Positions 3,598 through 62,435 of a stretch of 64,000 nucleotides of DNA are shown piece by piece. A program made the translations under genes and the position numbers. Numbering within the stretch: the first letter of the stretch is position 1; each line of letters starts with the position of its first letter. Source of the DNA: Elusimicrobiota bacterium (lineage in GTDB: Bacteria; Elusimicrobiota; Elusimicrobia; F11); NCBI GenBank assembly GCA_022072025.1, contig JAJVIP010000003.1, positions 1 to 64,000 on the forward strand. Reading direction: 5' to 3'. The notes beneath the pieces are model-generated. The model searched no databases. It worked only from the letters and a program-made list of their open reading frames with translations, and was not told where the DNA came from.

Positions 3598-3613
3598 AGA
3601 CTAGGCATTGTTT

Positions 3614-3650
3614 CTTACCCCCGTTCATTTCTTTGACGGGGGTAAGGGCA
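3614..3650 (+). terminator. strong stem-loop directly after the capsid gene (CTTACCCCCGT...ACGGGGGTAAG)
   Basis: 11-bp perfect inverted repeat without a clear U-tract. Likely a partial terminator or mRNA-stability element. Confidence 0.3.
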
Positions 3651-3688
3651 AAGAAATAATAATGCTTGGTAATTAAGGAGAACAATAC

Positions 3689-4366
3689 ATGCCAGGAACT
3701 GCTACTCCACTCGGATACTGTGATAAGACCGATCTGGAGAACTTTTTGTTAATGACGATTGATTCGTCGTTCAATACTCAGGTGAATGACTGGATTGCTG
3801 CGGCTGAAAATCAAGCTAATGGTTTCATGGGATATACAACTGCATCAGGGATAATGAATGAGGCGATTGTTGACGAAATCCAGGATGGAACAGTTAATTC
3901 TGATGGAGATCTTATAATCTTCCCAAGAAAATCTCCCCTTAATTCTATTTCAAGCATTTCCCTAATCAAGGGAACTTCCAGTATTACTCTCACCCTAACT
4001 GACTCTAGTGGTTCACCAAAATATAATATCCCCACTCACAGCAGGTCGGTATTATATCCAGGATACGAACTATCTATCACTGGTAGTAGTGTTATCACTA
4101 GCTTCAACGATTTAAGAGCTGGAAAATTCTTTACCAAGATGAGTTATGTTGCTGGATATACTACTGTCCCCGCCGATATTCGCCTCGCCACAGTTAATTA
4201 TGTAGCAGATGTACTCATGAGACATACAAATAAGGAGGCACTAGCGGCAATTACCCAGGGGAAGGTGAGTAAGAGATGGCAGGAGAGAAGGGGCGGAAAG
4301 TCCGACTTTATTCTTGATGCTGAGGATCTTCTCCAGGGATACAGATTGACCCAACGGTGGGTTTAA
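3689..4366 (+). CDS. head-tail connector / adaptor protein (gp6-like)
   Basis: N-terminal TDLENFLLMTIDSSFNTQVNDWIAAAE pattern is typical of phage head-tail connector proteins. Synteny after capsid gene. Confidence 0.45.
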   Translation: MPGTATPLGYCDKTDLENFLLMTIDSSFNTQVNDWIAAAENQANGFMGYTTASGIMNEAIVDEIQDGTVNSDGDLIIFPRKSPLNSISSISLIKGTSSITLTLTDSSGSPKYNIPTHSRSVLYPGYELSITGSSVITSFNDLRAGKFFTKMSYVAGYTTVPADIRLATVNYVADVLMRHTNKEALAAITQGKVSKRWQERRGGKSDFILDAEDLLQGYRLTQRWV

Positions 4367-19323: not shown

Positions 19324-19850
19324 AGATCCTCCTTGTTTTTTATCAAACTTTAAATAATGTGGACGAGAAAGCCGAACCGAGTAAACCAGATATAGCTCTA
19401 GTTCAAGCCTGAATTTAACCTCGTCATAGAGGGGTTTCTATAGTTCAAGTACTCTCCCTATAGAGGCGTTGCCTTCCAGATTAACAAAAACCCTTTAAGC
19501 AACTTACAAGTTTGCCCGAGGGCAAACCAATCGTAACCCTTTCGGGTGCAGAGACTGTTTAAGTCGAAGTAACTCAAATTCTTACTGCGTCCACACTGTT
19601 AAAGTTCAAAATATTGCAGAGAAAATTGATAAGAGTGACAATGCGTTCTAACACTGAACTACTGAGCTTTCGCCCAGACAGGAATCTAACCTGTGGCCTC
19701 ACATTCCAAAAATGAAGTAACTCTAGTCTCACTACTGCAATATGTTAATGTTCAAAATGGTAGAGAAAATTTGCGAGAGACTTATTATCGGCGAAGTAAC
19801 TCTCACTTCACTACTACCAAATAACATTATAACATAACAACATAATGTTG
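19324..19850. ncRNA. 527-nt noncoding leader upstream of rsr with 3 tandem degenerate ~78-nt repeats and several hairpins; candidate Y-RNA-like sRNA array
   Basis: No ORF of 60 aa or more. Repeats start at 19566, 19714 and 19793 (GAAGTAACTC...CACTACTGC...GTTCAAAAT...). Hairpins GTTTGCCCGAGGGCAAAC (19520-19537), ACCCTTTCGGGT and TCTATAG...CTATAGA. The CUCACUACUGC string recalls the 3' strand of the Ro-binding stem of vertebrate hY1 (from memory). Confidence 0.3.
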
Positions 19851-21735
<1,885 letters not shown>

Positions 21736-25373: not shown

Positions 25374-26414
25374 CTATTCTCCATGTTTTAACAAGTACTC
25401 TGGATTAATACATTTGAATGACAGGCGACCAAGATCTGGATCTCGCGTCTCTAAAACTGGGCGGATAACGATTCCCTCTGCCCAAACTTCTGGATTGAGC
25501 TTCGACTTACGAGTAGCCAGGGCGACTAGTTCATCTACGGTACTGGGGAGTTTAAACATAGGATCTACCCATGGTACAGACTTTAATCCCAAATCTATTA
25601 AGATGTCTGCTAAGGTGGGGGAACTAACATACTCTCCAGTTTGCATATCATAAACATTATAAAAAAGGATTCTCTGACCCTTAAGTTTAAGCCTATTGGC
25701 TTGGATACCTTCCCCAATTAGTTCTCCCTGGAGTGCCCAGCGGGAATCTTTTAGTTTTTCTTTGAGTCCCAACTCGTTGGCTACCTTCCAAAAACTGTTT
25801 CCCTCAGACTCTAGGAGGTTGATAGAGCGGGAGCAAACATTTAATTCTCCATCCTTCCAGTATATGGTCACAGAGGATCCATCTACCTTTTCTGTGATAT
25901 AGAAAGTATCAGTTTGATATCTTTCTAGAATCTCTGGACAACCCTGAATTCTAGGCTCATCTGTCTTAGGAATAAAGCTGGGGAATAACCCTTTGGCTAC
26001 GCCAGCTAACTGGGCGGGCATTGGGGGTTCATATTTATGTACGCCAAGAATACCCGTGACATCATCTCCCTCTTGAAGAAAATCTCTTCCAAGAGATTGG
26101 TGGATAACTGTAATGGGTAGACATAATCCTTGGCTAATTTGCCCCCGCAAGCGGATAGTTCTAAGACGGATCCCCTCTTCTTCTGCCCCATCGATTAACA
26201 TTTTTTTGGTACCATTTTTCTTTAAGAACTCATATCTAAAGTCATCGGCGGGCAAGAATGAGTCCACCTCATAATACACACATAAATCCCCAGGTTTGAA
26301 CTCACCCTTCTTTACCACTACATGCCACCCTAGAACAGTAGCCACCTCAATGGCATCTGCTCCCTCAATGGGTTTGATGTCTATAATCTTTTGGACACTA
26401 GCTAGTTTTCTCAT
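25374..26414 (-). CDS. ATP-dependent RNA ligase, DraRnl/Rnl5-like (nick-sealing family)
   Basis: N-terminal KLASVQKIIDIKPIEGADAIEVATVLGWHVVVKKGEFKPGD OB-like domain. Nucleotidyltransferase motif I EKVDGSS, motif IV EGIVIR, motif V FKCINPEY. Confidence 0.6.
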   Translation of the reverse strand: MRKLASVQKIIDIKPIEGADAIEVATVLGWHVVVKKGEFKPGDLCVYYEVDSFLPADDFRYEFLKKNGTKKMLIDGAEEEGIRLRTIRLRGQISQGLCLPITVIHQSLGRDFLQEGDDVTGILGVHKYEPPMPAQLAGVAKGLFPSFIPKTDEPRIQGCPEILERYQTDTFYITEKVDGSSVTIYWKDGELNVCSRSINLLESEGNSFWKVANELGLKEKLKDSRWALQGELIGEGIQANRLKLKGQRILFYNVYDMQTGEYVSSPTLADILIDLGLKSVPWVDPMFKLPSTVDELVALATRKSKLNPEVWAEGIVIRPVLETRDPDLGRLSFKCINPEYLLKHGE

Positions 26415-29213: not shown

Positions 29214-29666
29214 TCATTTATACTCCTTTGTTATACGATCATAAATAACTATTGATCCTGCGACGGCTACATTCAGACAAAATTGTCCTCCTGGTATTTC
29301 AACTACTGTTTTGTGTTCCATATATTCTTCAGGTAGTCCGTAATCTTCTGCCCCCAAAAGGTAGATTGCTCTTTCGGGATGGACGAAATTATGGAGGGGA
29401 CGGGAGATGGAATTTTTTTCAATACATATGACACTGCATCCTTTTGGTATGTGTCTATCAAACTCTGCAAGTGACTCGTATTCAAATAGGGGGATATGTC
29501 CTGTTGCACCGCTTGTATCGGAAGCTTGGCGATTGTATCTTCTACCGATTGTAAAGATGTGATTGGCATTGAAAGCATGTGCTGTCCTCCAGAGTGTCCC
29601 TATATTACTTGTAGTTTTGGGATGATAAATCCCAATTCCGTAGTAGCCTCTCATTTTATAATCCAT
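29214..29666 (-). CDS. SPOUT-class RNA 2'-O-methyltransferase, TrmL-like
   Basis: 150 aa. YGIGIYHPKTTSNIGTLWRTAHAFNANHIF...YLLGAEDYGLPEE...IPGGQFCLNVAVAGSIVIYDR parallels TrmL/CspR (IVLYEPEIPPNTGNIIR...SMNLSNAVSVVVYEA). Confidence 0.6.
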   Translation of the reverse strand: MDYKMRGYYGIGIYHPKTTSNIGTLWRTAHAFNANHIFTIGRRYNRQASDTSGATGHIPLFEYESLAEFDRHIPKGCSVICIEKNSISRPLHNFVHPERAIYLLGAEDYGLPEEYMEHKTVVEIPGGQFCLNVAVAGSIVIYDRITKEYK

Positions 29667-31936: not shown

Positions 31937-32641
31937 TTATCCCTCCTCCTTTATAAGATGTTGTTCTATATACTGTGGAGCTTGATTAAATCTTGGGATA
32001 TGGAGATCAATCTCCCAGTTGTTATAGAATTCGCTCCTTACTACACAAGATCCCCGCTTTAAGTGATCCTCTACATCATTCCAGTTCAGATTTTTGGCGT
32101 GGATTAAATCATGAAGCTTCTGCGAATCTTGTCCAAGAAGATCTTTATGAGAGTATAGACTTTGAGCGAGCATTTGAAGAGAATTTCTTTCTGCGTCCTG
32201 TTGCCTCCATAGGAAGTAGTTGTTAACCTCGTCTTCTGGCAACACAAATACTCTCGCATCAAAAATAGCCTCTCTCCCCATAAATACCGTAAGGGCAGCT
32301 GAAGCATAACCAGCTGAAACAGATACTATCTTTTGGATCTCGTTTCCAAACCACGGCTGACTATCAAACTTTTTATAGTTGTGGAGTAGGAGAGAAATCT
32401 CATCGCTTTGAATGTAGGCGAGTTCAACTCCTTGGAGTTTTTCACAGAGCCTCCTTGCCACTTCTTGCATGTGGGTGGTAAAGCCTAAATCATATGGCTT
32501 CTGAGCCTTATTAAGTAGGGTATGAAAAGCTTTGCCGTCTAAGCGGATAATTACTGGTAGTCGCAGGGGAAGTCTCGTCAGAAAGGGCGATTCATAATTT
32601 TCTTTCATGCGGTTGCCAAGGGATTTCATTTTCTTACGCAC
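31937..32641 (-). CDS. Thg1-like protein (tRNA-His guanylyltransferase family, 3'-5' polymerase)
   Basis: VIIRLDGKAFHTLLNKAQKPYD...MQEVA...ELAYIQSDEISLLL matches the Thg1 active-site region (RxDGxxFH, SDEIS). Confidence 0.75.
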   Translation of the reverse strand: MRKKMKSLGNRMKENYESPFLTRLPLRLPVIIRLDGKAFHTLLNKAQKPYDLGFTTHMQEVARRLCEKLQGVELAYIQSDEISLLLHNYKKFDSQPWFGNEIQKIVSVSAGYASAALTVFMGREAIFDARVFVLPEDEVNNYFLWRQQDAERNSLQMLAQSLYSHKDLLGQDSQKLHDLIHAKNLNWNDVEDHLKRGSCVVRSEFYNNWEIDLHIPRFNQAPQYIEQHLIKEEG

Positions 32642-33240: not shown

Positions 33241-33828
33241 TCATTTTTCTCCTGGAGCATATCCCAAATTAACTTCGGGATGAACCTTTAATGATTGTCC
33301 CACCCATAGAGAGCTCAAAAGCTTAATAAGTTGGTCCCTAGTGGCTTCGTCTTTTTTAATATAACAAACTGTCATGTGTGGCATATATCCAGAGAAGGTA
33401 TCGATGTGTGGGAGGAACTGGAGGCGAGAATGTCCCTCGAGCAATTTCTCGTCTACCTCAATGTGAGCCACAATACAATAGTAGGGTTCATCCTCATAGG
33501 GCGACTCAAAAAACCCAATGTCCTGAATTTTAACTTCGTCAATACTCCAATCCTTTAACACGGCATGAACCTGGTCGGCCCAAGTATGGGCATTTTCCAT
33601 AAGACCGTAAAGGAGAGTAACATGGGCATTCTTTCCTGCTACCCAACCCTTAATCCATTTGCGATCCTCATTTTGGGCGTAGTACAACATCTCTCCATCG
33701 CCCATCCCGTCTATACTCAACATAGAATCTAGTGGTTCTAGATCTAACATTACACATCCTAATCGATCAACATTTACATTTAAATCTTTATATATACCTT
33801 CGAACATGTGAGAGTTAAGTTGTGGCAT
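33241..33828 (-). CDS. 2H-phosphoesterase superfamily protein (LigT/ThpR-like 2',3'-cyclic phosphodiesterase)
   Basis: Two HxTx motifs, NAHVTLLYG and MPHMTVCYI, about 85 residues apart. This is the defining signature of the 2H fold. Confidence 0.55.
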   Translation of the reverse strand: MPQLNSHMFEGIYKDLNVNVDRLGCVMLDLEPLDSMLSIDGMGDGEMLYYAQNEDRKWIKGWVAGKNAHVTLLYGLMENAHTWADQVHAVLKDWSIDEVKIQDIGFFESPYEDEPYYCIVAHIEVDEKLLEGHSRLQFLPHIDTFSGYMPHMTVCYIKKDEATRDQLIKLLSSLWVGQSLKVHPEVNLGYAPGEK

Positions 33829-34933: not shown

Positions 34934-35794
34934 CTAGAAATCACCGTAGTCAACTTGTAGACAAGTTAGCCCCAGCGATCTCCACATATCAACCACCTGT
35001 TGGCGATCATCTAAAACAAATAGGACATTATATTTTCCCTTAATCTCAGCGTCATAAATTTCTTTTTTAATAATATTGTCGGTGCGATGATCCCCAGTTT
35101 TTCTCATAAAGAGGGAGATACGATCATCTAAAACAGAATGTTTGGCTAACCAGCGAACTGTTGGTTCACGATCTTTATCCTCTCTTCCAGAAAGATAGAT
35201 CGGGCGGACCCATTGTTTAGCATAATATGTTTTGAGAATATTTATTATTGGTTCGTTTGGCAAATCGTTCTCGCAAGTGGATGCGTCATAAGGATCACGA
35301 CCATTCCCTAGTGCGATGGTCCCATCTAGGTCACAAATGATAACTGTCGCCAGAGCAGGATCGAATGTGGGGCGTTCTACGGCTCTAAATTCTAGTTGAC
35401 GAGCCATCCTTCGGATCACCTTACTACCGACTGAATTTGGGCGGAGCAGATCCCTCTCTATACATGTTTCAACGGGGACATTGGTAAAGTCTTGAGTTTC
35501 AACCTCAGCATTATATTTGGCGGCAATTCTCCACATAGTATTTTTATGTTTACTATGTAGATTTGTATCATCCACAATTATGTCATGACCGCCCTTTAGA
35601 GATTCTTCTACAATAAAATCACGAACTTTCAAAACAAATTCTTCCCGCCCCTTTGAATGTACACCGACATGAAGCATGTCCCGCAAACTATCTTTATTAA
35701 CTCTAACTGTGTTGGGGTTTTGGGTTTGGTACTCTCTCGCCCAAGTTGTTTTACCAGAACCTGGAAGTCCTTTTGTCAATATAATCTTATTCAT
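34934..35794 (-). CDS. pnkp: polynucleotide 5'-kinase / 3'-phosphatase (T4 Pnkp-like)
   Basis: N-terminal P-loop kinase (GLPGSGKTT) and C-terminal HAD phosphatase (ICDLDGTIA, DxDGT motif I). Same domain order as T4 Pnkp. Confidence 0.8.
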   Translation of the reverse strand: MNKIILTKGLPGSGKTTWAREYQTQNPNTVRVNKDSLRDMLHVGVHSKGREEFVLKVRDFIVEESLKGGHDIIVDDTNLHSKHKNTMWRIAAKYNAEVETQDFTNVPVETCIERDLLRPNSVGSKVIRRMARQLEFRAVERPTFDPALATVIICDLDGTIALGNGRDPYDASTCENDLPNEPIINILKTYYAKQWVRPIYLSGREDKDREPTVRWLAKHSVLDDRISLFMRKTGDHRTDNIIKKEIYDAEIKGKYNVLFVLDDRQQVVDMWRSLGLTCLQVDYGDF

Positions 35795-36676: not shown

Positions 36677-37747
36677 TCATGCTACCGCCTCAGATTGTTG
36701 TTTAAATGGTCGCTCTGCCACGGGGCGAAGCTTCTTCCATATCATATGTGCATAGGGACGCTTATCAAGCATAGAGAATAAGATTGGGGCATACTCTCCA
36801 TCTTTCATAAACTCCATAGCTAGTGTCTTGCGATCTTTCACTCCACTACCAGTAGTGGTTATAAAAAGTGTTTTAGCTATTTGATCAATGGTATTATATT
36901 GGAGAATAAGGTTGTCGGCCGTATCTTTTACCCAGTGGTAAAACTCTTCTGGGACTCTTTCCATCAACTCTCCGAGGTCTTGCCCGTTACGAAGGAGATC
37001 CCAAATAGTCTTTTTATTCACCCCAGTTAATAGTCTGTGTAGGCGTACATATTCGTCAAACTTAAACTTAGTCCTCATCCCCGATTGGAAGCGGATAACA
37101 AACCCTTCACTGTCATTTTTTTGGATTGCCTTAATCTTTTCTAGATCATTTAACCCATCATATCTGCGTACTATTTTCATTTTCCCCGAAAACGCCATCT
37201 GTAGTGTCTCATATGGTACTTCTACACCATCCCTAGTGTTAAAGGCTGTGAGAAGATATAGATCTCTATCTAATCCATAATTAACTACAATCCTATTTTC
37301 TGGATAGATAATTTCGAACAAGTATGTGTATTCTGGGTTAAATTCTACTTGAGAATATTTTTCCTGAAGCATTTTATTCGCCTCAATAGCTTGGTCACTC
37401 TCAAAAGATCCCCGCGTGGCGATAAAGGGTTTCCCCCCAACAAAGTACATAATCCCAAGCGATCCATCCATCTTCTCAAATACTTCGAATGGCTCTGTAA
37501 GTGGTAATTTGGGTAAACCGTTATTTTCTTGATGTTCAGATAAGTTCCAGAACTTCTGGAATGGCCTGGCAACAACCTGGTTGGAAGCGTCCATAATAAG
37601 ACCCCGACAGGTAATTGTCTCGGGAGTCCAAACTTTATCAAATTGAGCTTTTTGGGAATAGTTATAAATCCACAATTCTTCGGTGGGGTGTTTTGTTTTA
37701 TCTATATACTTCTGGTCTATCAACTCTTGTAGTCGAGCGAGATCCAT
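36677..37747 (-). CDS. ATP-dependent RNA ligase (Rnl1/RnlA-like)
   Basis: Motif I EKMDGSLG (KxDG), motif IV EGFVIR, motif V KFKFDEY. 356 aa. Confidence 0.6.
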   Translation of the reverse strand: MDLARLQELIDQKYIDKTKHPTEELWIYNYSQKAQFDKVWTPETITCRGLIMDASNQVVARPFQKFWNLSEHQENNGLPKLPLTEPFEVFEKMDGSLGIMYFVGGKPFIATRGSFESDQAIEANKMLQEKYSQVEFNPEYTYLFEIIYPENRIVVNYGLDRDLYLLTAFNTRDGVEVPYETLQMAFSGKMKIVRRYDGLNDLEKIKAIQKNDSEGFVIRFQSGMRTKFKFDEYVRLHRLLTGVNKKTIWDLLRNGQDLGELMERVPEEFYHWVKDTADNLILQYNTIDQIAKTLFITTTGSGVKDRKTLAMEFMKDGEYAPILFSMLDKRPYAHMIWKKLRPVAERPFKQQSEAVA

Positions 37748-52394: not shown

Positions 52395-52760
52395 ATGTTA
52401 TTAAGTTTATTAGATTCTTATTTAAGTATGAGTAAGTATAAACTCCAGATGAATCCAAAGAAGACTAAATATGCCGATATTGTTCTAGCTAAGATAATGG
52501 GCAGACCTATTATCCCCAAGGCTGATGATGTTCTAGTTTTACCAGTAAGTGAATATGATTGGTTTGAGTGTAGCATTGGAAATATTGTCGAACATAGTAA
52601 CGAGGGAGTTGTTAAGCGGGCTACTATTTACATTGGTGAAATACTCGGGGGGACAAGTAATTTATGGAGCGATCAATATGACTCTGATGCAATCATGGCG
52701 ATTAACGGACACAAGATTAAGTCCAATAAAGATGCCTGGGATACAATTATCCCCTTTTAA
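52395..52760 (+). CDS. hypothetical protein
   Basis: 121 aa. Confidence 0.3.
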   Translation: MLLSLLDSYLSMSKYKLQMNPKKTKYADIVLAKIMGRPIIPKADDVLVLPVSEYDWFECSIGNIVEHSNEGVVKRATIYIGEILGGTSNLWSDQYDSDAIMAINGHKIKSNKDAWDTIIPF

Positions 52761-52838
52761 TTTTTAAGTAAGTATGGTATAATATGTTTCCAAGCATTGA
52801 ACCCGTGCTCTAGGGGATGAATAACCCAGGGTTCTCTA

Positions 52839-52909
52839 GGCCAGCTAGTTCAGTGGTAGAACATCGGTGTTACATACCGACTATGAGGGTTCGATTCCTT
52901 CGCAGGCCA
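52839..52909 (+). tRNA. tRNA-Val (anticodon UAC)
   Basis: Manual cloverleaf: acceptor GGCCAGC/GCAGGCC (one A-A mismatch), D-arm GUUC-AGUGGUA-GAAC, anticodon stem UCGGU/ACCGA with loop GUUACAU, T-arm GAGGG-UUCGAUU-CCUUC. Confidence 0.55.
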
Positions 52910-53335
52910 CATCGGATACTTAGGAGAGGGTCTTACTGGCCGTAAGCACTTAACCTCTAAGTTGATTAAGCTAACCCGCGTGGAGGCGGTCCATCCCAAC
53001 TGTTTGGACGCTCCCTTGCTAGACTAGGAAGCATGAGCGGTGGAAGGTGTTAAGACCGAAATTGCTAATCAGCTACCTTCGCCTGAGTATCGGATCGCTT
53101 TAGGTCGGGGGGAAACTAGACTGAGTTTTCTCGAGTCTGATATAGCCCCCCGCCCATTTTTCCGAGCTCAGTGGGTGAAAGACACTCGTATGCTAGAGGG
53201 CTATGGAATGTAAGTGGGAATCCAGAAGAGTCCCCTTTTCCTGAAGTGTGGTGCTGGCCGTCGCCTTCCGAGCTAACACCCTTGCTCCTATGAGGAACGC
53301 AGGGTAATGGTAAGTTCTCTAGCACACCCGCACTA
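52910..53335 (+). other. 426-nt noncoding, highly structured spacer inside the tRNA array (unknown RNA element)
   Basis: No credible ORF. Hairpins CCGC-GUGGAG-GCGG and GUCCA...UGGAC. A long composite hairpin GGUCGGGGGG-AAACU-[AGACUGAG-UUUU-CUCGAGUCU]-GAUAUAG-CCCCCCGCC sits near 53115-53170. Confidence 0.3.
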
Positions 53336-53414
53336 GGCGATATGGTGAAATGGTAGACACGCCTGCCTTAAGAGCAGGTCCGCAAGGGTAAAGGTCCGAG
53401 TCCTTTTATCGCCA
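53336..53414 (+). tRNA. tRNA-Leu (anticodon UAA), type II
   Basis: Acceptor GGCGAUA/UAUCGCC, anticodon stem CCUGC/GCAGG with loop CUUAAGA, long variable arm, T-arm AAAGG-UCCGAGU-CCUUU, discriminator A. Confidence 0.65.
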
Positions 53415-53418
53415 CCTC

Positions 53419-53492
53419 GGGCGACTACCCCAATTGGTAGAGGGAACGGTTTTAGAAACCGTGTAGTCAGAGTTCGAATCTCTGGTTGCCCA
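53419..53492 (+). tRNA. tRNA with anticodon UAG (Leu by code) but short class-I variable arm
   Basis: Acceptor GGGCGAC/GUUGCCC (G5-U68 wobble), anticodon stem ACGGU/ACCGU with loop UUUAGAA, 5-nt variable loop, T-arm CAGAG-UUCGAAU-CUCUG. Confidence 0.5.
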
Positions 53493-53497
53493 CATTT

Positions 53498-53568
53498 AGA
53501 TCTCTAGCTCAATGGTAGAGCTGTCGGCTTATACCCGACTGACAGAGGTTCGATTCCTTTGAGATCTA
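53498..53568 (+). tRNA. tRNA-Ile (anticodon UAU), A1-U72
   Basis: Acceptor AGAUCUC/GAGAUCU, D-arm GCUC-AAUGGUA-GAGC, anticodon stem GUCGG/CCGAC with loop CUUAUAC, T-arm AGAGG-UUCGAUU-CCUUU. Confidence 0.55.
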
Positions 53569-53572
53569 CAGA

Positions 53573-53644
53573 GTTCCTATAGTTCAATGGATAGAATAAT
53601 TCCCTTCTAAGGAATAGATTCGGGTTCAAGTCCTGGTGGGAACA
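53573..53644 (+). tRNA. tRNA-Arg (anticodon UCU)
   Basis: Acceptor GUUCCUA/UGGGAAC, anticodon stem AUUCC/GGAAU with loop CUUCUAA, T-loop UUCAAGU. Confidence 0.55.
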
Positions 53645-53680
53645 CTTGTTTCAGTAAAGCAAGTATGTCATAATATATTT

Positions 53681-54091
53681 ATGACAAATTCAAATGAATA
53701 TATGAGGGGATATCTTAAAAAGAGATATCATTCTCGCCGAGAAGGGGCTGTCAAACTTCTGGGGGGATGTTGTTCAAAATGTGGATCTCTAAAAAAATTA
53801 GAACTTGATCATAAAGACTATACAAAAAAATCTTTTGATATTTCTAAGTTGTGGAATATATCTTATATAAAATATAATGAGGAAATAAAAAAATGTCAAT
53901 TATTATGTAAATCTTGTCATATTAAAAAAACAAGAGAAGATTTAGGACAAGAAAACGCAAGAGAAACCCATGGAACCTTATCCGCATGGAGATATTGTAA
54001 GTGTCAATTGTGCCGAGAGGCATTTAATAAATATATGAGAGAATATAAAAGCAGGGTTCATAGCAAAGTGGCTACTGCACTCGCCTCTTAA
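53681..54091 (+). CDS. HNH endonuclease inserted in the tRNA array
   Basis: ELDHKDYTKKSFDISKLWN...LLCKSCHIKKT HNH core with CCSKCG zinc knuckle. Very AT-rich. The track ORF 53636..54091 overlaps the upstream tRNA-Arg and the downstream tRNA-Lys by about 38 nt. Confidence 0.65.
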   Translation: MTNSNEYMRGYLKKRYHSRREGAVKLLGGCCSKCGSLKKLELDHKDYTKKSFDISKLWNISYIKYNEEIKKCQLLCKSCHIKKTREDLGQENARETHGTLSAWRYCKCQLCREAFNKYMREYKSRVHSKVATALAS

Positions 54092-54126
54092 GCGAGATAT
54101 CGACAGTTCGATTCTGTCTGAGCCCA
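54054..54126 (+). tRNA. tRNA-Lys (anticodon CUU)
   Basis: Acceptor GGGUUCA/UGAGCCC (U4-G69 wobble), anticodon stem CUCGC/GCGAG with loop CUCUUAA, T-arm GACAG-UUCGAUU-CUGUC. Confidence 0.55.
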
Positions 54127-54130
54127 CATT

Positions 54131-54207
54131 GGGGTTGTAGCATAGTGGCCTATTGCATCCGCCCTTTAAGCGGAACATCGGTGGTCCGAATCCACCCAGC
54201 CCCACCA
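54131..54207 (+). tRNA. tRNA-Lys-like (anticodon UUU) with C at position 33, CCA encoded
   Basis: Acceptor GGGGUUG/CAGCCCC, anticodon stem UCCGC/GCGGA with loop CCUUUAA (C33 is unusual), T-arm GGUGG-UCCGAAU-CCACC, 3' ACCA encoded. Confidence 0.45.
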
Positions 54208-54209
54208 AT

Positions 54210-54281
54210 GGCCCTGTCGTCTATCGGCTAGGACACCAGGTTTTCATCCTGGTAAGTAGGGTTCAATTCCCTACAGGGTCA
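54210..54281 (+). tRNA. tRNA-Glu (anticodon UUC)
   Basis: Acceptor GGCCCUG/CAGGGUC, D-arm GUCU-AUCGGCUA-GGAC, anticodon stem CCAGG/CCUGG with loop UUUUCAU, T-arm UAGGG-UUCAAUU-CCCUA. Confidence 0.6.
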
Positions 54282-54287
54282 CAAGTT

Positions 54288-54361
54288 CATCCGTTGGCCA
54301 AGCAGTAAGGCGACTGTTTGCAGAACAGTTATCACAGGTGCAAATCCTGTACGGATGTCCA
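54288..54361 (+). tRNA. tRNA-Cys (anticodon GCA), CCA encoded
   Basis: Acceptor CAUCCGU/ACGGAUG, anticodon stem ACUGU/ACAGU with loop UUGCAGA, T-arm ACAGG-UGCAAAU-CCUGU, 3' UCCA. Confidence 0.5.
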
Positions 54362-54368
54362 ATAAATT

Positions 54369-54440
54369 GGTAGAGCCGTCGCGAAGTCGAGACGCCTGTT
54401 TGAAGCACAGGAGAAGTGGGAGCATTACCTACCTCTACCA
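54369..54440 (+). tRNA. degenerate tRNA-like gene (anticodon GAA, Phe) lacking canonical D-loop GG and T-loop TPsiC
   Basis: Acceptor GGUAGAG/CUCUACC perfect, anticodon stem CCUGU/ACAGG with loop UUGAAGC, but D-arm GUC-GCGAAGUCGA-GAC and T-arm GUGGG-AGCAUUA-CCUAC are non-canonical. Confidence 0.35.
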
Positions 54441-54441
54441 C

Positions 54442-54512
54442 TGTGCCTTAGTTCAACGGTAGAATACTGCTCTGATAAAGCGGGGACATAAGTTCAACTC
54501 TTTTAGGCACAA
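54442..54512 (+). tRNA. tRNA-Ile (anticodon GAU), U1-A72
   Basis: Acceptor UGUGCCU/AGGCACA, D-arm GUUC-AACGGUA-GAAU, anticodon stem CUGCU/AGCGG with loop CUGAUAA, T-loop UUCAACU. Confidence 0.5.
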
Positions 54513-54562
54513 CTCATTTCAGAAAAGACAGAAAAAGTGCCTTTAAGTGAAATGAGAATCGT

Positions 54563-54638
54563 GGTGGTATTGATGTAGCGGTAGTCATACTTGGCTGTGA
54601 ACCAAGAAGAGACAGTTCAACTCTGTCATACCACCCCA
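54563..54638 (+). tRNA. tRNA-His (anticodon GUG) with genomically encoded G-1 opposite C73 and encoded CCA
   Basis: G-1 at 54563, acceptor GUGGUAU/AUACCAC, anticodon stem CUUGG/CCAAG with loop CUGUGAA, T-arm GACAG-UUCAACU-CUGUC, 3' C-CCA. Confidence 0.65.
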
Positions 54639-54669
54639 TAGTATGCTAGAATTGGGAAAAAGGAGGAAT

Positions 54670-55098
54670 ATGATTGTATACACGGGCGGGACTTTTGACT
54701 TGTTTCATTGGGGACATATTAATTTTCTTAAAGAGTGTAGAAAATTGGCGGGACCCGAAGGAAAAGTATGGGTAGCTCTCAACACAGATGAGTTTGTTCT
54801 TAGGTATAAACAACAGAAAACTGTGTTTACTTTGGTTGAGCGGAAATTAATGCTTGAAGCGAGTGGTTTGGTGGATAAAGTAATCACCAATATCGGGGAC
54901 GAAGATTCTAAACCAGCCATCGAACATGTTCGTCCAAATATTGTCGCAATTTCCTCTGATTGGGCACGCCGAGACTACTATGGACAAATGAGGTTTACTC
55001 AAGACTGGCTAGATGAGCGGGGTATAATTCTTGCCTACATCCCCCACACTAAGGGAATCTCCTCAACAGAGATCAGATATAGGCTAAAGGCGGTGTAG
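54670..55098 (+). CDS. cytidylyltransferase-family nucleotidyltransferase (TagD-like, HxGH motif)
   Basis: GGTFDLFHWGHINFLKECRKL...ALNTDEFV...ISSDWARRDYYGQ...YIPHTKGISSTEIRYRL parallels glycerol-3-phosphate cytidylyltransferase TagD. SD AAAGGAGG before the ATG at 54670 (track start is 54643). Confidence 0.65.
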   Translation: MIVYTGGTFDLFHWGHINFLKECRKLAGPEGKVWVALNTDEFVLRYKQQKTVFTLVERKLMLEASGLVDKVITNIGDEDSKPAIEHVRPNIVAISSDWARRDYYGQMRFTQDWLDERGIILAYIPHTKGISSTEIRYRLKAV

Positions 55099-55159
55099 TG
55101 TAGTGGTAGCACAATGGGTTCTCAGCCCATTATCTGGAGTTCGAATCTCCACGCCGTCA
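55089..55159 (+). tRNA. tRNA-Glu (anticodon CUC)
   Basis: Acceptor GGCGGUG/CGCCGUC (two G-U wobbles), D-arm GUGU-AGUGGUA-GCAC, anticodon stem AUGGG/CCCAU with loop UUCUCAG, T-arm UGGAG-UUCGAAU-CUCCA. Confidence 0.6.
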
Positions 55160-55216
55160 CAGTTGATTTTTTAGTCAAAATATGCTAAAATAATACGCCA
55201 TAGGGGAGATTTATAT

Positions 55217-55957
55217 ATGTCAAAAACATTATTGATTGACAATCGCATTTTTAACGACTCCTGGTTCTATAGTTTATCTCCAGATTCAAAGCTTTTATTC
55301 CTTTTTTTACTCTTAAATGATGTCTCTAACATTATTGGATGCTATGAGATCCCTATTCAAATTATAATTTCTTATACAGGACTCTCCGATAAGCGACTCC
55401 AAACATGTTTCAAAGAGCTAAAATCAAAGGTAGTTTACCATAATGGGTGGGTAATTGTCAAAAATTACTGCAAATACAACCCAATGAGGAACCCGAGCAT
55501 TGAGGTGGCTCAAAAAAAACTAGAAAAAACACTTCCAGAGGAAATATACACCCTGTACACAGCCTGTGGACACCCTGTGGACACCCTGTACACAGGGTCT
55601 AAGGAACAGGAACAGGAAAAGGAAGATATAAATACTAGTATTAATAATAAAGGGGGTGTGGGGGATCAAGGGTTGGTTCCTTACGAAGAAGGTGAGTTGG
55701 TTGTGGCTAAAAAGAAACATTCATCGGTTGATGATATAACTGCGGAGGATTTAATGACAATCGCTGAAGAATTTAAGGTGCCACTGGATTATGTCGAGAG
55801 ACGGCTCCGTGCTATGAAAAACTGGATGAGTGCCAAGGGTAAAACTTATAAAAACTACTATGCAGGATTAAAAACCTGGATAGAAAAAGATGTTGATGAC
55901 TTCCGTAAAAAAATAGATCCTTACAAGAGGGGCATAGATGCCACAGGATTATCATGA
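55217..55957 (+). CDS. hypothetical protein with internal iteron-like DNA repeats (possible replication initiator)
   Basis: 246 aa. Coding region 55548-55600 contains ACACCCTGT four times (tACACCCTGTacacagcctgtggACACCCTGTggACACCCTGTacacagggtc). Confidence 0.3.
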   Translation: MSKTLLIDNRIFNDSWFYSLSPDSKLLFLFLLLNDVSNIIGCYEIPIQIIISYTGLSDKRLQTCFKELKSKVVYHNGWVIVKNYCKYNPMRNPSIEVAQKKLEKTLPEEIYTLYTACGHPVDTLYTGSKEQEQEKEDINTSINNKGGVGDQGLVPYEEGELVVAKKKHSSVDDITAEDLMTIAEEFKVPLDYVERRLRAMKNWMSAKGKTYKNYYAGLKTWIEKDVDDFRKKIDPYKRGIDATGLS

Positions 55958-60297: not shown

Positions 60298-60304
60298 GGG
60301 TTTG

Positions 60305-60385
60305 CGGAGGGTATAGGAGTTGAACCTATTACGCCTTTCGGCGACGGGTTAGCGACCCGTTGTATTACCGTCCTACCCACCCTCC
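60305..60385 (-). tRNA. tRNA-Ser (anticodon GCU), type II, C33
   Basis: Acceptor GGAGGGU/ACCCUCC, anticodon stem ACGGG/CCCGU with loop UCGCUAA, long variable stem CGCC-GAAA-GGCG, T-loop UUCAACU. Confidence 0.55.
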
Positions 60386-60389
60386 AGAG

Positions 60390-60471
60390 CGGAAGGGACA
60401 GGATTCGAACCTGCACGCCCTTTCAGGCAGTTGTTTTCAAGACAACCGAGCTACCACTGCTCAACCCTTCC
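60390..60471 (-). tRNA. tRNA-Ser (anticodon UGA), type II
   Basis: Acceptor GGAAGGG/CCCUUCC, D-arm GAGC-AGUGGUA-GCUC, anticodon stem GUUGU/ACAAC with loop CUUGAAA, long variable arm, T-loop UUCGAAU. Confidence 0.6.
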
Positions 60472-60475
60472 AATG

Positions 60476-60559
60476 TGGCCACTGTAGGAATCGAACCCAC
60501 CTAGTCCGAGGGACAAGTGCTTTACAGGCACCCTGGAACACCAGTTCCTTATAATGGCC
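60476..60559 (-). tRNA. tRNA-Tyr (anticodon GUA), type II
   Basis: Acceptor GGCCAUU/AGUGGCC, anticodon stem GGUGC/GCACU with loop CUGUAAA, long variable arm GUCC-CUC-GGAC, T-arm GUGGG-UUCGAUU-CCUAC. Confidence 0.5.
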
Positions 60560-60563
60560 AATG

Positions 60564-60634
60564 TTTCGGGAGAAGGGTTCGAACCTCCGTTAGCTGGGTC
60601 AAAGCCAGCTGTCCTACCACTAGACGATCCCGAA
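60564..60634 (-). tRNA. tRNA-Gln (anticodon UUG), U1-A72
   Basis: Acceptor UUCGGGA/UCCCGAA, D-arm GUCU-AGUGGUA-GGAC, anticodon stem GCUGG/CCAGC with loop CUUUGAC, T-arm GGAGG-UUCGAAC-CCUUC. Confidence 0.55.
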
Positions 60635-60639
60635 TCGTG

Positions 60640-60711
60640 TGCCCCCAGAAAGAATCGAACTTTCATTATCTGTTTCGTAGACAGACATCCTATCCGTTAA
60701 ATGACAGGGGC
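60640..60711 (-). tRNA. tRNA-Arg (anticodon ACG)
   Basis: Acceptor GCCCCUG/UGGGGGC, anticodon stem UCUGU/ACAGA with loop CUACGAA, T-arm GAAAG-UUCGAUU-CUUUC. Confidence 0.55.
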
Positions 60712-60716
60712 TTGTG

Positions 60717-60788
60717 TTGCGAGAGATGGGTACGATCCACCATCTCAACTTTCAGAGAGTTGTGTCCTACCTGTTAGACGATCTCGCA
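60717..60788 (-). tRNA. tRNA-Gln (anticodon CUG), U1-A72, slightly degenerate T-loop
   Basis: Acceptor UGCGAGA/UCUCGCA perfect, D-arm GUCU-AACAGGUA-GGAC, anticodon stem CAACU/AGUUG with loop CUCUGAA, T-arm GGUGG-AUCGUAC-CCAUC. Paralog of the UUG tRNA-Gln. Confidence 0.5.
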
Positions 60789-60793
60789 TTGTG

Positions 60794-60867
60794 CTCTAGG
60801 AGAGGGACTCGAACCCCCGACCCCTCGATTAACAGTCGAGTGCTACCACCAGCTGAGCTACCCTAGA
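60794..60867 (-). tRNA. tRNA-Asn (anticodon GUU), U1-A72
   Basis: Acceptor UCUAGGG/UCCUAGA, anticodon stem CUCGA/UCGAG with loop CUGUUAA, T-arm GGGGG-UUCGAGU-CCCUC. Confidence 0.5.
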
Positions 60868-60872
60868 TTGGG

Positions 60873-60946
60873 CGGGATTGAGCAGATTCGAACTGCCGAT
60901 TTCTCGCGTGACAGGCGAGTGGAATGAGCCACTATCCTACAATCCC
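60873..60946 (-). tRNA. tRNA-Asp (anticodon GUC)
   Basis: Acceptor GGGAUUG/CAAUCCC, anticodon stem CUCGC/GCGAG with loop CUGUCAC, T-arm GGCAG-UUCGAAU-CUGCU. Confidence 0.55.
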
Positions 60947-61332
60947 ATTTTATAAATACGATTAGATGTTCTTATGGCATGACAGTTAGAACAAACCAAA
61001 TCACATTTTTTTATTTCACTTTTAATCTTTTCTATACTCGCAGATTTTTGGACCAGGGCGGAGATAGAATGGTAGATGTCCTTTTTAGGTATTCTGTGAT
61101 CAAATTCCATACAGCATGACGGGAAAATACCACCACAATCAAGACAAGGTTTCCCCAGTTTATACTCTTCAATAAATTTAATATTTCTTGCCACATATGA
61201 AGGTCTGTGTGATTTTCTATTGGCACGATATTTTTCTTTGTTGTTTTGATAATGTTTTTGTTGATAAGCTTTTTGCTTAAGTTTGTCTTTGTATCCCATA
61301 GACACATTATATGTTAAAGTTCTATTCTCCAC
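60937..61332 (-). CDS. HNH endonuclease
   Basis: CLDCGG...CCMEFDHRIPKKD...LVCSNCHAIRT HNH/zinc motif. Its 3' end overlaps the tRNA-Asp 5' end by 10 nt. Confidence 0.7.
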   Translation of the reverse strand: MENRTLTYNVSMGYKDKLKQKAYQQKHYQNNKEKYRANRKSHRPSYVARNIKFIEEYKLGKPCLDCGGIFPSCCMEFDHRIPKKDIYHSISALVQKSASIEKIKSEIKKCDLVCSNCHAIRTSNRIYKMGL

Positions 61333-61352
61333 AATAGAGAATCGTACTTATG

Positions 61353-61424
61353 TTGCGGAGAACAGAGTCGAACTGTTTCCCCCTGCTTATGAGACAGGTG
61401 TGCGAGCCGTCACACTCCCCCGCA
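61353..61424 (-). tRNA. tRNA-Met (anticodon CAU; elongator or lysidine-Ile type), U1-A72
   Basis: Acceptor UGCGGGG/CUCCGCA, D-arm GUGU-GACGGCUC-GCAC, anticodon stem CCUGU/GCAGG with loop CUCAUAA, T-arm AACAG-UUCGACU-CUGUU. No initiator features. Confidence 0.55.
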
Positions 61425-62048: not shown

Positions 62049-62433
62049 TCGGGGGCGACTTGCTTTGACAGGTTTCTCTCAGAATAATCTGCATGTCGGC
62101 TTTGACCAAGAGCCGTTAAACAGGGTTAAAAAACAAATGCTAAATTTTTGAAGCATATAGCAAATAAAGTTACCGCTATCCTTGACGGGATATGGGACGC
62201 TTTATCTGTTCCTTCAGTTACAGCTTTCGCTTAACTGACGGCGTTCGACATGAACTTGCTTGTGGGAAAGTGTCGGGCGAGAATACACACAAGATCAGCT
62301 TTTGATTGAGCATAATATCAATCACAACCACAGGCGTAGTGGTTAAAACGCTGGCGTCCTCAACGGATGAAAAACATGTAGACGGTTATTTTGTGAAGGT
62401 CTGGACGGGATGTCACTCATCCCCGCCTCCACC
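62049..62433 (+). ncRNA. ssrA: tmRNA (SsrA), one-piece, about 385 nt
   Basis: 5' GGGGGCGACUUGCUUUGACAGG... resembles E. coli GGGGCUGAUUCUGGAUUCGACGGG. 3' end GGAC-GGGAU-GUCACUC-AUCCC-CGCCUCC-A-CC forms a T-arm plus acceptor that pairs with the 5' GGGGGCG, including the G3-U70 Ala identity pair. Internal CUGCAUGUCGG is like the E. coli pseudoknot-1 GGUGCAUGCCGAGG. Candidate tag ORF GCA AAU AAA ... GCU UUC GCU UAA (ANKVTAILDGIWDALSVPSVTAFA) at about 62160-62234. Confidence 0.65.
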
Positions 62434-62435
62434 CC

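Follow-up and report, generated by a model that had tools for sequence, protein, structure and literature searches.

The first 64,000 nucleotides (nt) of contig JAJVIP010000003.1 (assembly GCA_022072025.1; hereafter the window), a metagenomic contig (Logan SRR10609169) binned in an Elusimicrobia metagenome-assembled genome, are part of a large (about 104 kb) tailed phage encoding an SU10-like major capsid protein as well as tail tube and tape-measure proteins, and they carry a plus-strand array of transfer RNA (tRNA) genes. ARAGORN called 21 tRNAs across the window; 12 lie on the plus strand, within 52839 to 55160, and these standard members all scored 54.5-67.7 bits against Rfam family RF00005 (gathering threshold 29). 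The original prediction, made by hand, had listed 13 tRNAs here. Twelve of the 13 coincided with the ARAGORN and Rfam calls, with identical anticodons and coordinates within 1-3 nt at the 3' end, and under relaxed automated prediction (ARAGORN) the predictors agreed on boundaries and anticodons for those 12, the 13th appearing in mitochondrial mode only. The confirmed anticodons are Val UAC, Leu UAA, UAG, Ile UAU, Arg UCU, Lys CUU, Lys UUU, Glu UUC, Cys GCA, Ile GAU, His GUG and Glu CUC. The array is confirmed as a real 13-gene tRNA cluster. As the hand annotation had it, CCA is encoded in three genes (Lys(UUU), Cys and His) and two protein genes, one HNH-like and one of the cytidylyltransferase family, interrupt the array; its largest interruption, a 425-nt GC-rich non-coding block, had gone unremarked. 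At least 7 of the 22 tRNAs of the window break positions regarded as "universal."

The array is one of at least three tRNA clusters of the phage, which give it a near-complete decoder set of its own. A second array on the minus strand (60304..61424) holds nine tRNAs (Ser GCU, Ser UGA, Tyr, Gln UUG, Arg ACG, Gln CUG, Asn, Asp and Met). Because a third group, comprising Leu(AAG), Pro(UGG), Ala(UGC), Thr(UGU) and Gly(UCC), continues just past the window end (L030 19221..20227), at least 27 tRNAs of the phage lie in the stretch covered here, which is the window and about 2 kb past its end; no tRNA-Trp was seen among them. Codon use in the phage is A/U-leaning at third positions (GC content there, GC3, 0.37): Leu is written as CUA in 20% of cases, Ile as AUA in 22% and Arg as AGA in 37%, preferences that fit the UAG, UAU and UCU tRNAs. 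Upstream of tRNA-Val, an extended -10-like element (TGgTATAAT) has a counterpart, TGgTATACT, at the same place in a relative (L031), and may possibly be the promoter of the array. It was not listed by the consensus promoter scan, which demands a -35 hexamer, and the promoter and terminator scan gave counts no higher than the shuffled expectation.

Comparisons were drawn from several sources. A BLASTN search against 50,697 phage records returned single-tRNA matches only, and no deposited phage was similar beyond those. Two syntenic relatives were found, via the array proteins: L031 (ENA, 8.9 kb), at about 70-80% nucleotide identity to the window, and L041 (Logan, 1.6 kb), whose cytidylyltransferase is 85% identical to the window copy. 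More distant relatives with the same HNH family are L045 (NCBI, 106-kb contig) and L046 (32 kb). The seven IMG/VR loci reached through the cytidylyltransferase (45-48% identity) had no tRNAs, and a downstream 246-aa protein had no IMG/VR match and homologues (L032, L033) without nearby tRNAs. The background set comprised 225 tRNAs that ARAGORN called in 21 unrelated IMG/VR contigs, themselves retrieved via shared anticodon-arm patterns.

The 13th gene, with anticodon GAA, is the most unusual member of the array. It had no Rfam tRNA match even at E<=10 (52700..55300 searched) and was not called by ARAGORN in bacterial mode from -ps95 to -ps80, the last setting adding only false antisense calls; ARAGORN -mt called mtRNA-Phe(gaa) at 54369..54441. 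Folded alone (RNAfold), the element forms a clean four-arm cloverleaf (frequency of the minimum free energy structure 0.62, z -2.84) of canonical tRNA length (~72 nt), with a 7-bp acceptor stem, a D arm GUC(G)/(A)GAC with loop CGAAGUCG, a 7-nt anticodon loop UUGAAGC with U33 and a purine at 37, variable nucleotides AGAA, and a T stem GUGGG/CCUAC closing the T loop AGCAUUA (A54 G55 C56 A57 U58 U59). The observation that it lacks the D-loop GG and a canonical T loop was accurate, and further tertiary nucleotides depart from the usual set (C8, C14, AG for GG, A54, G55, U58), with G19 and C56 retained. At 18/55 and 54/58 the substitutions belong to a covarying type that other phage tRNAs show too.

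Synteny and covariation bear on what this element is. Between Cys(GCA) and Ile(GAU), where the window has the GAA element, L031 and L041 have a canonical tRNA-Phe(GAA), which in L031 scores 65.2 Rfam bits. The acceptor stem of the element, GGUAGAG/CUCUACC, is identical to that of L041 Phe, and its T stem differs by one G.U. Three double compensatory pairs separate it from L041 Phe (11-24, 29-41, 31-39) and seven from L031 Phe (four acceptor-stem pairs, two anticodon-stem pairs and one T-stem pair), with none broken in either comparison. The D arm is homologous to that of L031 Phe (GUC...GAC); between the two, the D loop changes from GGUCA to AGUCG and the T loop from UUCGACU to AGCAUUA, so that G18 becomes A along with U55 becoming G, and U54.A58 becomes A54.U58. 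Phenylalanine identity comprises G34, A35, A36 and A73, to which E. coli adds U20 and U59 (PMC9976931). The element has the GAA anticodon, A73 (at 54440) and U59, and its D loop makes U20 plausible. It is the sole Phe decoder seen among the at least 27 tRNAs, and Phe codons are 3.4% of phage codons. Similar Phe genes occur in three unrelated phage contigs (L005, L006, L007), with the same anticodon arm, D loops AGAUAG.. and T loops xGCxxxx; two of these three were not called by ARAGORN, and the L007 gene was missed in bacterial mode. The T-loop class (A54 G55 C56 R57 U58) is found in these three Phe genes and recurs in the Thr(UGU) and Asn(GUU) genes of L045, both called by ARAGORN, and a pattern scan of IMG/VR for the non-canonical Phe module found only L007 plus three chance matches. 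Because its stems differ from those of its orthologues only by compensatory pairs, the element does not appear to be decaying. The suggestion that it may be a pseudo-tRNA or structural mimic is not supported, given the tRNA-Phe slot, the compensatory stems, G34/A35/A36/A73 and its place as sole Phe decoder. The element appears to be a tRNA-Phe orthologue under structural selection, and we conclude that it is probably a structurally re-coded, functional-looking tRNA-Phe that standard tools miss.

Re-coding of the elbow extends to other members. In canonical tRNAs the elbow is held by contacts U54-A58, G18-U55 and G19-C56, and of all tRNA modifications Psi55 is the one conserved most universally (PMC7912444). 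Several departures had escaped the hand annotation: C55 in Leu(UAA) and Lys(UUU); a tRNA-Cys with C1-G72, U73, a D loop without GG (AAGCAGUAA; A18 G19) and G55 in the T loop UGCAAAU; and a minus-strand Gln(CUG) with T loop AUCGUAC (A54, U58). The Cys elbow covaries among relatives: window and L041 combine AAG(C/U)AGUAA with UGCAAAU (A18 and G55), and L031 combines a canonical D loop, AAGAGGCAA, with UUCGAAU (G18 and U55). In the background, all 11 G55 tRNAs lack the D-loop GG (YAG or similar) versus 6 of 215 U55 tRNAs (Fisher 8e-15), and U58 is accompanied by A54 in 13/13. Other D/T-loop pairings in the background are GA with UUU (A19, U56) and GC with UUG (C19, G56). Since the conserved contact pairs change together, these elbow changes are compensated substitutions and not elbow loss. 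C55 looks specific to this phage group, with two tRNAs in the window, 2/9 in L041, 5/13 in L046, 1/15 in L045 and 0/225 in the background. The tRNA-Cys anticodon arm also appears to have been replaced relative to L041, as 10 of 17 arm positions differ versus 4 of 56 elsewhere (p 2e-5) and every pair is kept.

The two leucine tRNAs of the array have reduced variable arms. In Leu(UAA) the arm is 10 nt and the T loop UCCGAGU; in Leu(UAG) ARAGORN places a 5-nt variable loop, GUAGU, in a 75-nt gene, bearing out the short class-I loop noted by hand and falling outside class II, in which the variable arm has 10 nt or more and forms a stem-loop. The hand annotation had gone on to argue that this tRNA would not be a normal substrate of leucyl-tRNA synthetase (LeuRS). 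For E. coli LeuRS the essentials are A73, the A15-U48 Levitt pair, G18G19 and A20a, leucine identity also lists the elbow pairs G18.U55, G19-C56 and U54.A58, and the anticodon and long variable arm are not essential, arm-less variants staying active (PMC9976931). A type-I tRNALeu occurs naturally in Streptomyces coelicolor; its variable loop is 5 nt long, and the LeuRS of that species charges it (PMC6614811). With a 3-bp D stem, the D loop CAAUUGGUAGA (A14, A15, G18G19, A20a), U48, T loop UUCGAAU and A73, tRNA-Leu(UAG) carries every E. coli-type leucine identity element in this sequence test.

Short leucine tRNAs are common, with 19 of 33 Leu tRNAs in the sampled phage contigs 74-78 nt long, and the Leu(UAG) of L045, at 75 nt, has a D loop identical to that in the window. 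Apart from position 13, that loop matches the E. coli tRNALeu D loop (GAAUUGGUAGA). Aligned short and long Leu(UAG) genes share the D loop, anticodon arm and A73, and differ mainly by a ~10-nt gap at the variable arm. Eight short Leu(UAG) genes give a consensus cloverleaf with compensatory change in 17 of 23 pairs and none broken, and conserve the D loop AAUUGGUAGA and A73. Because the identity set is kept, the short family is common and CUN accounts for 66% of phage Leu codons, the claim of an abnormal LeuRS substrate is unsupported; the dispensable long arm and the S. coelicolor precedent point the same way. The short tRNA-Leu thus appears to be a functional family, common in phage arrays.

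As had been read by hand, the Lys(UUU) anticodon loop is CCUUUAA, placing C at position 33; its T loop is UCCGAAU, and C55 is common to the window and L041 Lys(UUU). Three Lys(UUU) genes have the loop CCUUUAA (those of the window, L045 and L046), as against none of four Lys(CUU) genes. The anticodon stems of these C33 genes differ (UCCGC in the window, CCCGC in L046, AAUGC in L045) and their bodies have diverged too, L045 being the most divergent row in the Lys alignment. C33 was found in 10 of the 225 background tRNAs. PrrC cuts tRNALys 3' of U33, a cut repaired by T4 Pnk and Rnl1 (PMC2610378), and C33 therefore lies at the junction that PrrC cleaves. The minus-strand Ser(GCU) likewise has the predicted C33 (loop UCGCUAA); this gene is 78 nt long, with a reduced D arm and a U3.U70 mismatch. 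Whole anticodon arms also vary. In the window, Lys(CUU), here body A, has CUCGC-CUCUUAA-GCGAG and Lys(UUU), body B, has UCCGC-CCUUUAA-GCGGA; L031 has the same two Lys arms on opposite bodies, the window body A arm being the L031 body B arm. Anticodon arms thus appear to behave as exchangeable modules. The anticodon arm is the region that AriB-type nuclease reads, and in T5 tRNALys two anticodon-stem substitutions block its cleavage (PMC12409363, PMC11464382).

Of the interrupting protein genes, the first encodes 136 aa with a beta-beta-alpha-metal motif, CSKCG...LDHKD...CKSCH (CxxC...DH...CxxCH). Because its Pfam HNH (PF01844) score of 15.3 bits (E 0.022) falls below the cut-off of 21.4, the HNH assignment rests on this metal-binding motif and on homologue naming (72 homologues, one of which NCBI names an HNH endonuclease). 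Its 3' end overlaps the first 38 nt of tRNA-Lys(CUU), and the family ends inside the 5' part of a tRNA-Lys in four phages (the window, L031 4092..4502, L045 10001..10417 and L046 4992..5438), with no HNH gene at the same junction in L041, which suggests a mobile element homing next to tRNA-Lys. A second HNH-like open reading frame (ORF) lies in the minus-strand array between Asp and Met (60940..61332), with a CxxC..DH..CxxCH motif and no Pfam match. The second interrupting gene (142 aa) had been called TagD-like. This is fair at family level, since the superfamily models pass (PF01467 67.4 bits versus 21; TIGR00125 54.9 versus 27.7) and an HxGH motif is present, but the TagD equivalog TIGR01518 reaches only 68.9 bits against a cut-off of 165.4; RfaE domain II scores 58.2 bits. 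The protein is a member of the HxGH nucleotidyltransferase family with an unproven substrate. The last 10 nt of the gene overlap tRNA-Glu(CUC). Outside phages, the nearest homologues (about 65% identity) belong to cellular gene clusters for polysaccharides, and it may be an auxiliary gene captured from one.

The 425-nt block between tRNA-Val and Leu(UAA) has a tRNA-like GC content (0.51-0.54 versus about 0.40 in the flanks), three predicted domains and fold z values of -2.8 on the plus and -3.1 on the minus strand. Within 52700..55300 it matched no Rfam family at E<=10, and the non-tRNA matches there were spurious (Plastid-ycf2 antisense, mascRNA and a 16-bit YrlA fragment), all lying over tRNAs. 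L031 likewise gave no non-tRNA Rfam family for its spacers, and ARAGORN found no tRNA or transfer-messenger RNA (tmRNA) in the block in any mode, and none in the L031 spacers with introns allowed or in tmRNA mode, both of which were also applied to the block. A ~55-nt motif within the block is shared with L031 (3272..3325) and reads GGGGGG, AAACUAG, a GAC..GUC hairpin, CUGAUAUAG and CCCCCC, with two compensatory outer-stem pairs versus L031. The ATCGGAUA...UAUCGGAU stem that closes the first domain of the block is present in L031 as well. The motif was not found in IMG/VR, a single scan of JGI metagenomes returned seven chance matches without the G/C stem, and a fuzzy search of all fetched loci returned the window and L031 only. 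Several known classes were rejected: RNase P RNA (no GGAAAGUCC-type P4 sequence), group I intron, tmRNA, ROOL or GOLLD (no Rfam matches), Y RNA (no GNCGAA Ro-binding motif), hammerhead ribozyme (just two helices flank CUGAUA/GAAA-like loops) and protein coding (longest ORFs of 57 and 69 aa, GC-rich and atypical for the phage). The block may be a stable RNA co-transcribed with the tRNAs. The tRNA cluster of phage T4 also holds a stable RNA that is co-transcribed with its tRNAs.

Other inter-tRNA spacers are structured as well. A hairpin, UCAUUUCA...UGAAAUGA, lies between Ile(GAU) and His, and further conserved inter-tRNA elements are present in relatives. The Cys-Phe spacer (L031 5061..5137; L041 384..469) has identical 20- and 25-nt blocks, a rod-like fold and two compensatory pairs in its closing stem (L031 versus L041); the window retains only 7 nt of it, the rest being deleted. 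In L031, a 230-nt element (3600..3836) is closed by an 18-bp perfect stem, AGAUAUAAGACACUGCGG/CCGCAGUGUCUUAUAUCU, and its first part is a D arm like that of tRNA-Leu, GCG-GAAUAGGUAGA-CGC; even when introns were allowed, no tool reported a tRNA there. Among the standard tRNAs, G32 of tRNA-Val is also found in L031 Val, and the G-1 of tRNA-His is genome-encoded (54563, read from the sequence) opposite C73.

Coordinates of the tRNA array and of associated features in the window
Feature	Coordinates	Strand	Evidence and remarks
Ro60/Rsr orthologue (TROVE, vWA_Ro60 domains)	17902..19323	-	
YrlA-like Y RNA	19610..19741	-	Rfam 32.3 bits, gathering score 69, E 5.5e-5; directly upstream of Ro60
GroEL (Cpn60)	20140..21732	-	
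Second RNA ligase with PHA02142 OB domain	25377..26414	-	
SpoU 2'-O-methyltransferase	29217..29666	-	
Thg1-like protein	31940..32641	-	
2H phosphoesterase	33244..33828	-	
Pnkp (kinase and HAD phosphatase)	34937..35794	-	
Rnl1-like ligase	36680..37747	-	
Extended -10-like element TGgTATAAT	52775..52783	+	Read from sequence; 56 nt upstream of tRNA-Val
tRNA-Val(UAC)	52839..52910	+	ARAGORN; Rfam 59.1 bits; G32, A5.A68 mismatch
GC-rich non-coding block, 425 nt	52911..53335	.	Three predicted domains; matches no Rfam family
Conserved motif in block (~55 nt)	53102..53154	+	Shared with L031 3272..3325; fold z -3.8
tRNA-Leu(UAA)	53336..53416	+	ARAGORN; Rfam 59.2 bits; 81 nt
tRNA-Leu(UAG), type I	53419..53493	+	ARAGORN; Rfam 54.5 bits; 75 nt
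tRNA-Ile(UAU)	53498..53569	+	ARAGORN; Rfam 67.7 bits; orthologues in L031, L046
tRNA-Arg(UCU)	53573..53645	+	ARAGORN; Rfam 62.9 bits
HNH-like endonuclease gene, 136 aa	53681..54091	+	Gene call; metal-binding motif; homologue naming
tRNA-Lys(CUU), body A	54054..54127	+	ARAGORN; Rfam 63.7 bits
tRNA-Lys(UUU), body B	54131..54207	+	ARAGORN; Rfam 58 bits; CCA encoded
tRNA-Glu(UUC)	54210..54282	+	ARAGORN; Rfam 55.5 bits; 96% identical to L041
tRNA-Cys(GCA)	54288..54361	+	ARAGORN; Rfam 56.9 bits; CCA encoded
Cryptic tRNA-Phe(GAA), predicted	54369..54440	+	Cloverleaf fold; ARAGORN -mt; synteny with L031/L041 Phe
tRNA-Ile(GAU)	54442..54513	+	ARAGORN; Rfam 60.2 bits
Spacer hairpin	54514..54555	+	RNAfold -9.5 kcal/mol, z -2.8; between Ile(GAU) and His
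tRNA-His(GUG)	54563..54638	+	ARAGORN 54564..54638; Rfam 55 bits; CCA encoded
Cytidylyltransferase-family gene, 142 aa	54670..55098	+	Pfam CTP_transf_like; FHWGH motif
tRNA-Glu(CUC)	55089..55160	+	ARAGORN; Rfam 61.9 bits
tmRNA, full-length	62051..62434	+	Rfam 74.6 bits, E 3.8e-27; not called by ARAGORN

The rest of the window holds many genes related to tRNA and translation. Besides a Pnkp, an Rnl1-like ligase and a second RNA ligase, these include a SpoU methyltransferase, a Thg1-like protein, a 2H phosphoesterase, GroEL, a tmRNA and a Ro60/Rsr orthologue with an adjoining YrlA-like RNA. Y RNAs adjoining Ro60 are known in phages, and YrlA is a tRNA mimic (PMC4201824). Judged from these genes, the phage appears heavily invested in keeping tRNA and translation intact, and fits the published view of phage tRNAs as countering tRNA-depleting defences (PMC10264068, PMC11555353). 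Two more distant relatives, L045 and L032, carry further tRNA- and NAD-related genes next to tRNAs: in L045 (GCA_009772455.1 WNFI01173772.1, 1..11000), NAMPT, NUDIX, an NMNAT-like protein, an RNA ligase, PNKP, HD and RlaP, and in L032 (10615..16189), RtcB, Fic and an RNA ligase. L045 also carries both GroEL and GroES.

The explanation that we favor, and hold to be moderately probable, is that the array is a working part of a near-complete phage decoder set in which the odd tRNAs are compensated variants, kept functional against tRNA-directed defence. It builds on gene presence, structures, synteny, covariation, the recurrence of C33 and the repair-gene context. All 13 plus-strand genes would most likely yield tRNAs charged by host synthetases according to their anticodons, and these tRNAs would read the A/U-ending codons of the phage. 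Re-coding would keep the L-shape (G18.U55 to A18.G55, U54.A58 to A54.U58, U55 to C55), the leucine variable arm would have been lost with the D-loop and A73 identity set retained, whole anticodon arms would have been exchanged between genes, and the HNH gene would be a mobile, homing-type insertion tied to tRNA-Lys. The most likely selection would be for tRNAs that stay functional while host tRNases or phage-induced turnover destroy the host pool. Under such selection, C33 in Lys(UUU) would alter the nucleotide at a PrrC-type cleavage junction, replacement of anticodon arms would alter the surface read by stem-directed nucleases, and elbow re-coding would remove T54/Psi55 sites.

Phage tRNAs are known to escape tRNases via few substitutions (PMC10264068, PMC11464382, PMC12409363, PMC11555353), and there is a tRNase that cuts the T loop (PMC9086364). 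The general idea that phage tRNAs serve as nuclease-insensitive replacements, raised in the original prediction, is thus already published (PMC10264068, PMC11464382, PMC11555353), and the recurrence of C33 and the Pnkp and Rnl1-like genes add support, making it plausible that tRNAs of this array are nuclease-resistant substitutes. In terms of substitution at a cleavage site relative to the host isoacceptor, what is found is C33 at the PrrC junction in three phages. We infer expression, charging and, as the selective cause, nuclease evasion; defence evasion appears the most plausible driver of C33 in Lys(UUU) and of anticodon-arm exchange, and a reasonable candidate driver for the elbow variants.

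Several points weigh against this explanation. C33 is not present in Lys(UUU) of L031 or L041, the close relatives number just these two, both of them short contigs, and the 225-tRNA background is non-random, its contigs having been chosen by shared tRNA patterns. The C33, C55 and G55 changes could be tolerated, slightly deleterious ones in genes needed for one infection cycle. In the GAA element, C8 and C14 replace U8.A14. Its D arm may collapse into an extended hairpin, and RNase P, the CCA-adding enzyme or phenylalanyl-tRNA synthetase may therefore act on it poorly.

In a rival account, possible though we think it distinctly less likely than not to hold, the array supplies tRNAs for A/U-ending codons under relaxed constraint, the odd nucleotides are neutral or slightly deleterious drift, borne because a phage tRNA has to work for a short time only and at high copy, and evasion has no role. 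The tRNA set does fit the codon preferences of the phage, and the odd positions shift by lineage, C55 falling in different tRNAs of the window, L041 and L046 and L031 being almost fully canonical; in the background, C33 occurs in many isoacceptors (10/225) without obvious tie to a known nuclease. Relaxed constraint would not, however, predict that tertiary changes are strictly coupled (G55 occurring only where the D loop lacks GG, and U58 only together with A54), the same CCUUUAA loop in three Lys(UUU) genes with diverged stems, or divergence focused on the anticodon arm with all pairs kept, and the presence of at least seven tRNA repair and modification genes argues that tRNA damage is a real pressure.

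It has also been proposed that some members are no longer tRNAs in function: the GAA element, and perhaps the C33-bearing Lys(UUU) and Ser(GCU), might be decoys that titrate tRNases, might bind Ro60 or might be dying genes. The failure of the GAA element in Rfam and in ARAGORN bacterial mode and its lack of U8, A14, G18, T54 and U55 speak for this, as does the presence of Ro60 and a tRNA-mimicking YrlA-like RNA, which puts mimics in the repertoire of the phage (PMC4201824). We nevertheless consider it unlikely, as the four stems of the GAA element are intact with compensatory changes versus its orthologues, its loop is the standard UUGAAGC within a Phe identity set, it is the sole decoder for an amino acid at 3.4% of codons, and its T-loop class recurs in genes that are called (L045 Thr and Asn) and one that is not (L007 Phe); a preserved anticodon or discriminator would be needless in a decoy. 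Far more improbable still is that the class-I UAG tRNA is charged with an amino acid other than leucine, reassigning CUN during infection. Class-I architecture with a leucine anticodon is unusual, and yeast mitochondria do reassign CUN by means of a class-I tRNA. The phage gene, however, has the full leucine D-loop and A73 signature, identical to that of long-arm Leu(UAG) in other phages, the short Leu(UAG) family is widespread beside ordinary tRNA sets, and because CUN makes up 66% of the Leu codons of the phage its reassignment would be catastrophic.

A defence-directed decoder set remains the explanation that we prefer, and it bears on how phages may escape tRNases. Described escape consists of few anticodon stem-loop substitutions; this locus offers candidates for other routes, namely C33 in Lys(UUU), replaced arms, re-coded T/D-loop pairs and arm-less Leu tRNAs, in a phage with a full tRNA repair kit. 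We speculate, while thinking it rather unlikely, that alternative elbows, type-I Leu tRNAs and arm exchange form a second "immune-evasive" layer outside the anticodon loop, and that the block and spacers are new co-transcribed structured RNAs. If this were true, alternative elbows (A18.G55, A54.U58, C55, A19-U56) would delete the T54, Psi55 and G18 recognition or modification sites with the L-shape kept, and phage tRNA repertoires would be systematically under-counted because standard tRNA finders miss some of these genes, as they do the Phe gene here. That a functional-looking tRNA can escape both ARAGORN and Rfam affects repertoire counts and codon-usage analyses, and the elbow covariations are natural experiments on translation-compatible variants, useful for orthogonal tRNA design.

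The kind of system is known, and the cryptic Phe, the recurrent C33-Lys, the elbow classes and the type-I Leu family are undescribed in the literature searched. Like the arrays of T4, T5/BF23, KVP40 and mycobacteriophage cluster C1, this one is tightly packed (2-10 nt spacers), covers most amino acids with a bias toward phage codons, contains small HNH-type mobile genes and accompanies Pnkp and RNA ligase repair genes (PMC2610378, PMC10264068). Unlike those arrays, it has more members that break "universal" positions, one member invisible to predictors, and long structured non-coding spacers. The presence in the same genome of Ro60 and an adjoining YrlA-like RNA recalls the Ro60/Rsr-bound YrlA mimics (PMC4201824), but the array members have true anticodon arms, acceptor stems and discriminators, and the YrlA-like gene lies 33 kb away. 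Other parallels are the nuclease-insensitive T5 tRNA-Lys(UUU) against PARIS AriB, T5 tRNA-Tyr against Retron-Eco7 and mycobacteriophage tRNAs against VapC, in which few anticodon stem-loop substitutions relative to the sensitive isoacceptor lie at or near the cleavage site; Lys(UUU) is again the focus (PMC11464382, PMC12409363, PMC11555353, PMC10264068). Unlike the escape mutations described in the literature consulted, the changes here are U33 to C at the PrrC-type junction, whole-arm exchange and elbow re-coding.

The leucine family resembles S. coelicolor tRNALeu(CAA) and animal mitochondrial tRNALeu, which LeuRS accepts all the same, in having no long arm, and the window gene has a 5-nt variable loop as in S. 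coelicolor (PMC6614811, PMC9976931). Unlike these, the phage family, whose charging is predicted, keeps a class-II-type D arm (3-bp stem, AAUUGGUAGA loop) and A73, and it is spread over unrelated phage contigs. Finally, the loss of G18G19 and T54-Psi55-C56 with the cloverleaf kept, and the detection of the GAA gene solely by ARAGORN -mt, are reminiscent of mitochondrial-type tRNAs. Unlike these, the phage variants keep a 7-nt T loop, C56, G19 and normal length, and their elbows appear to have changed by pairwise substitution and not by loss of the interaction.

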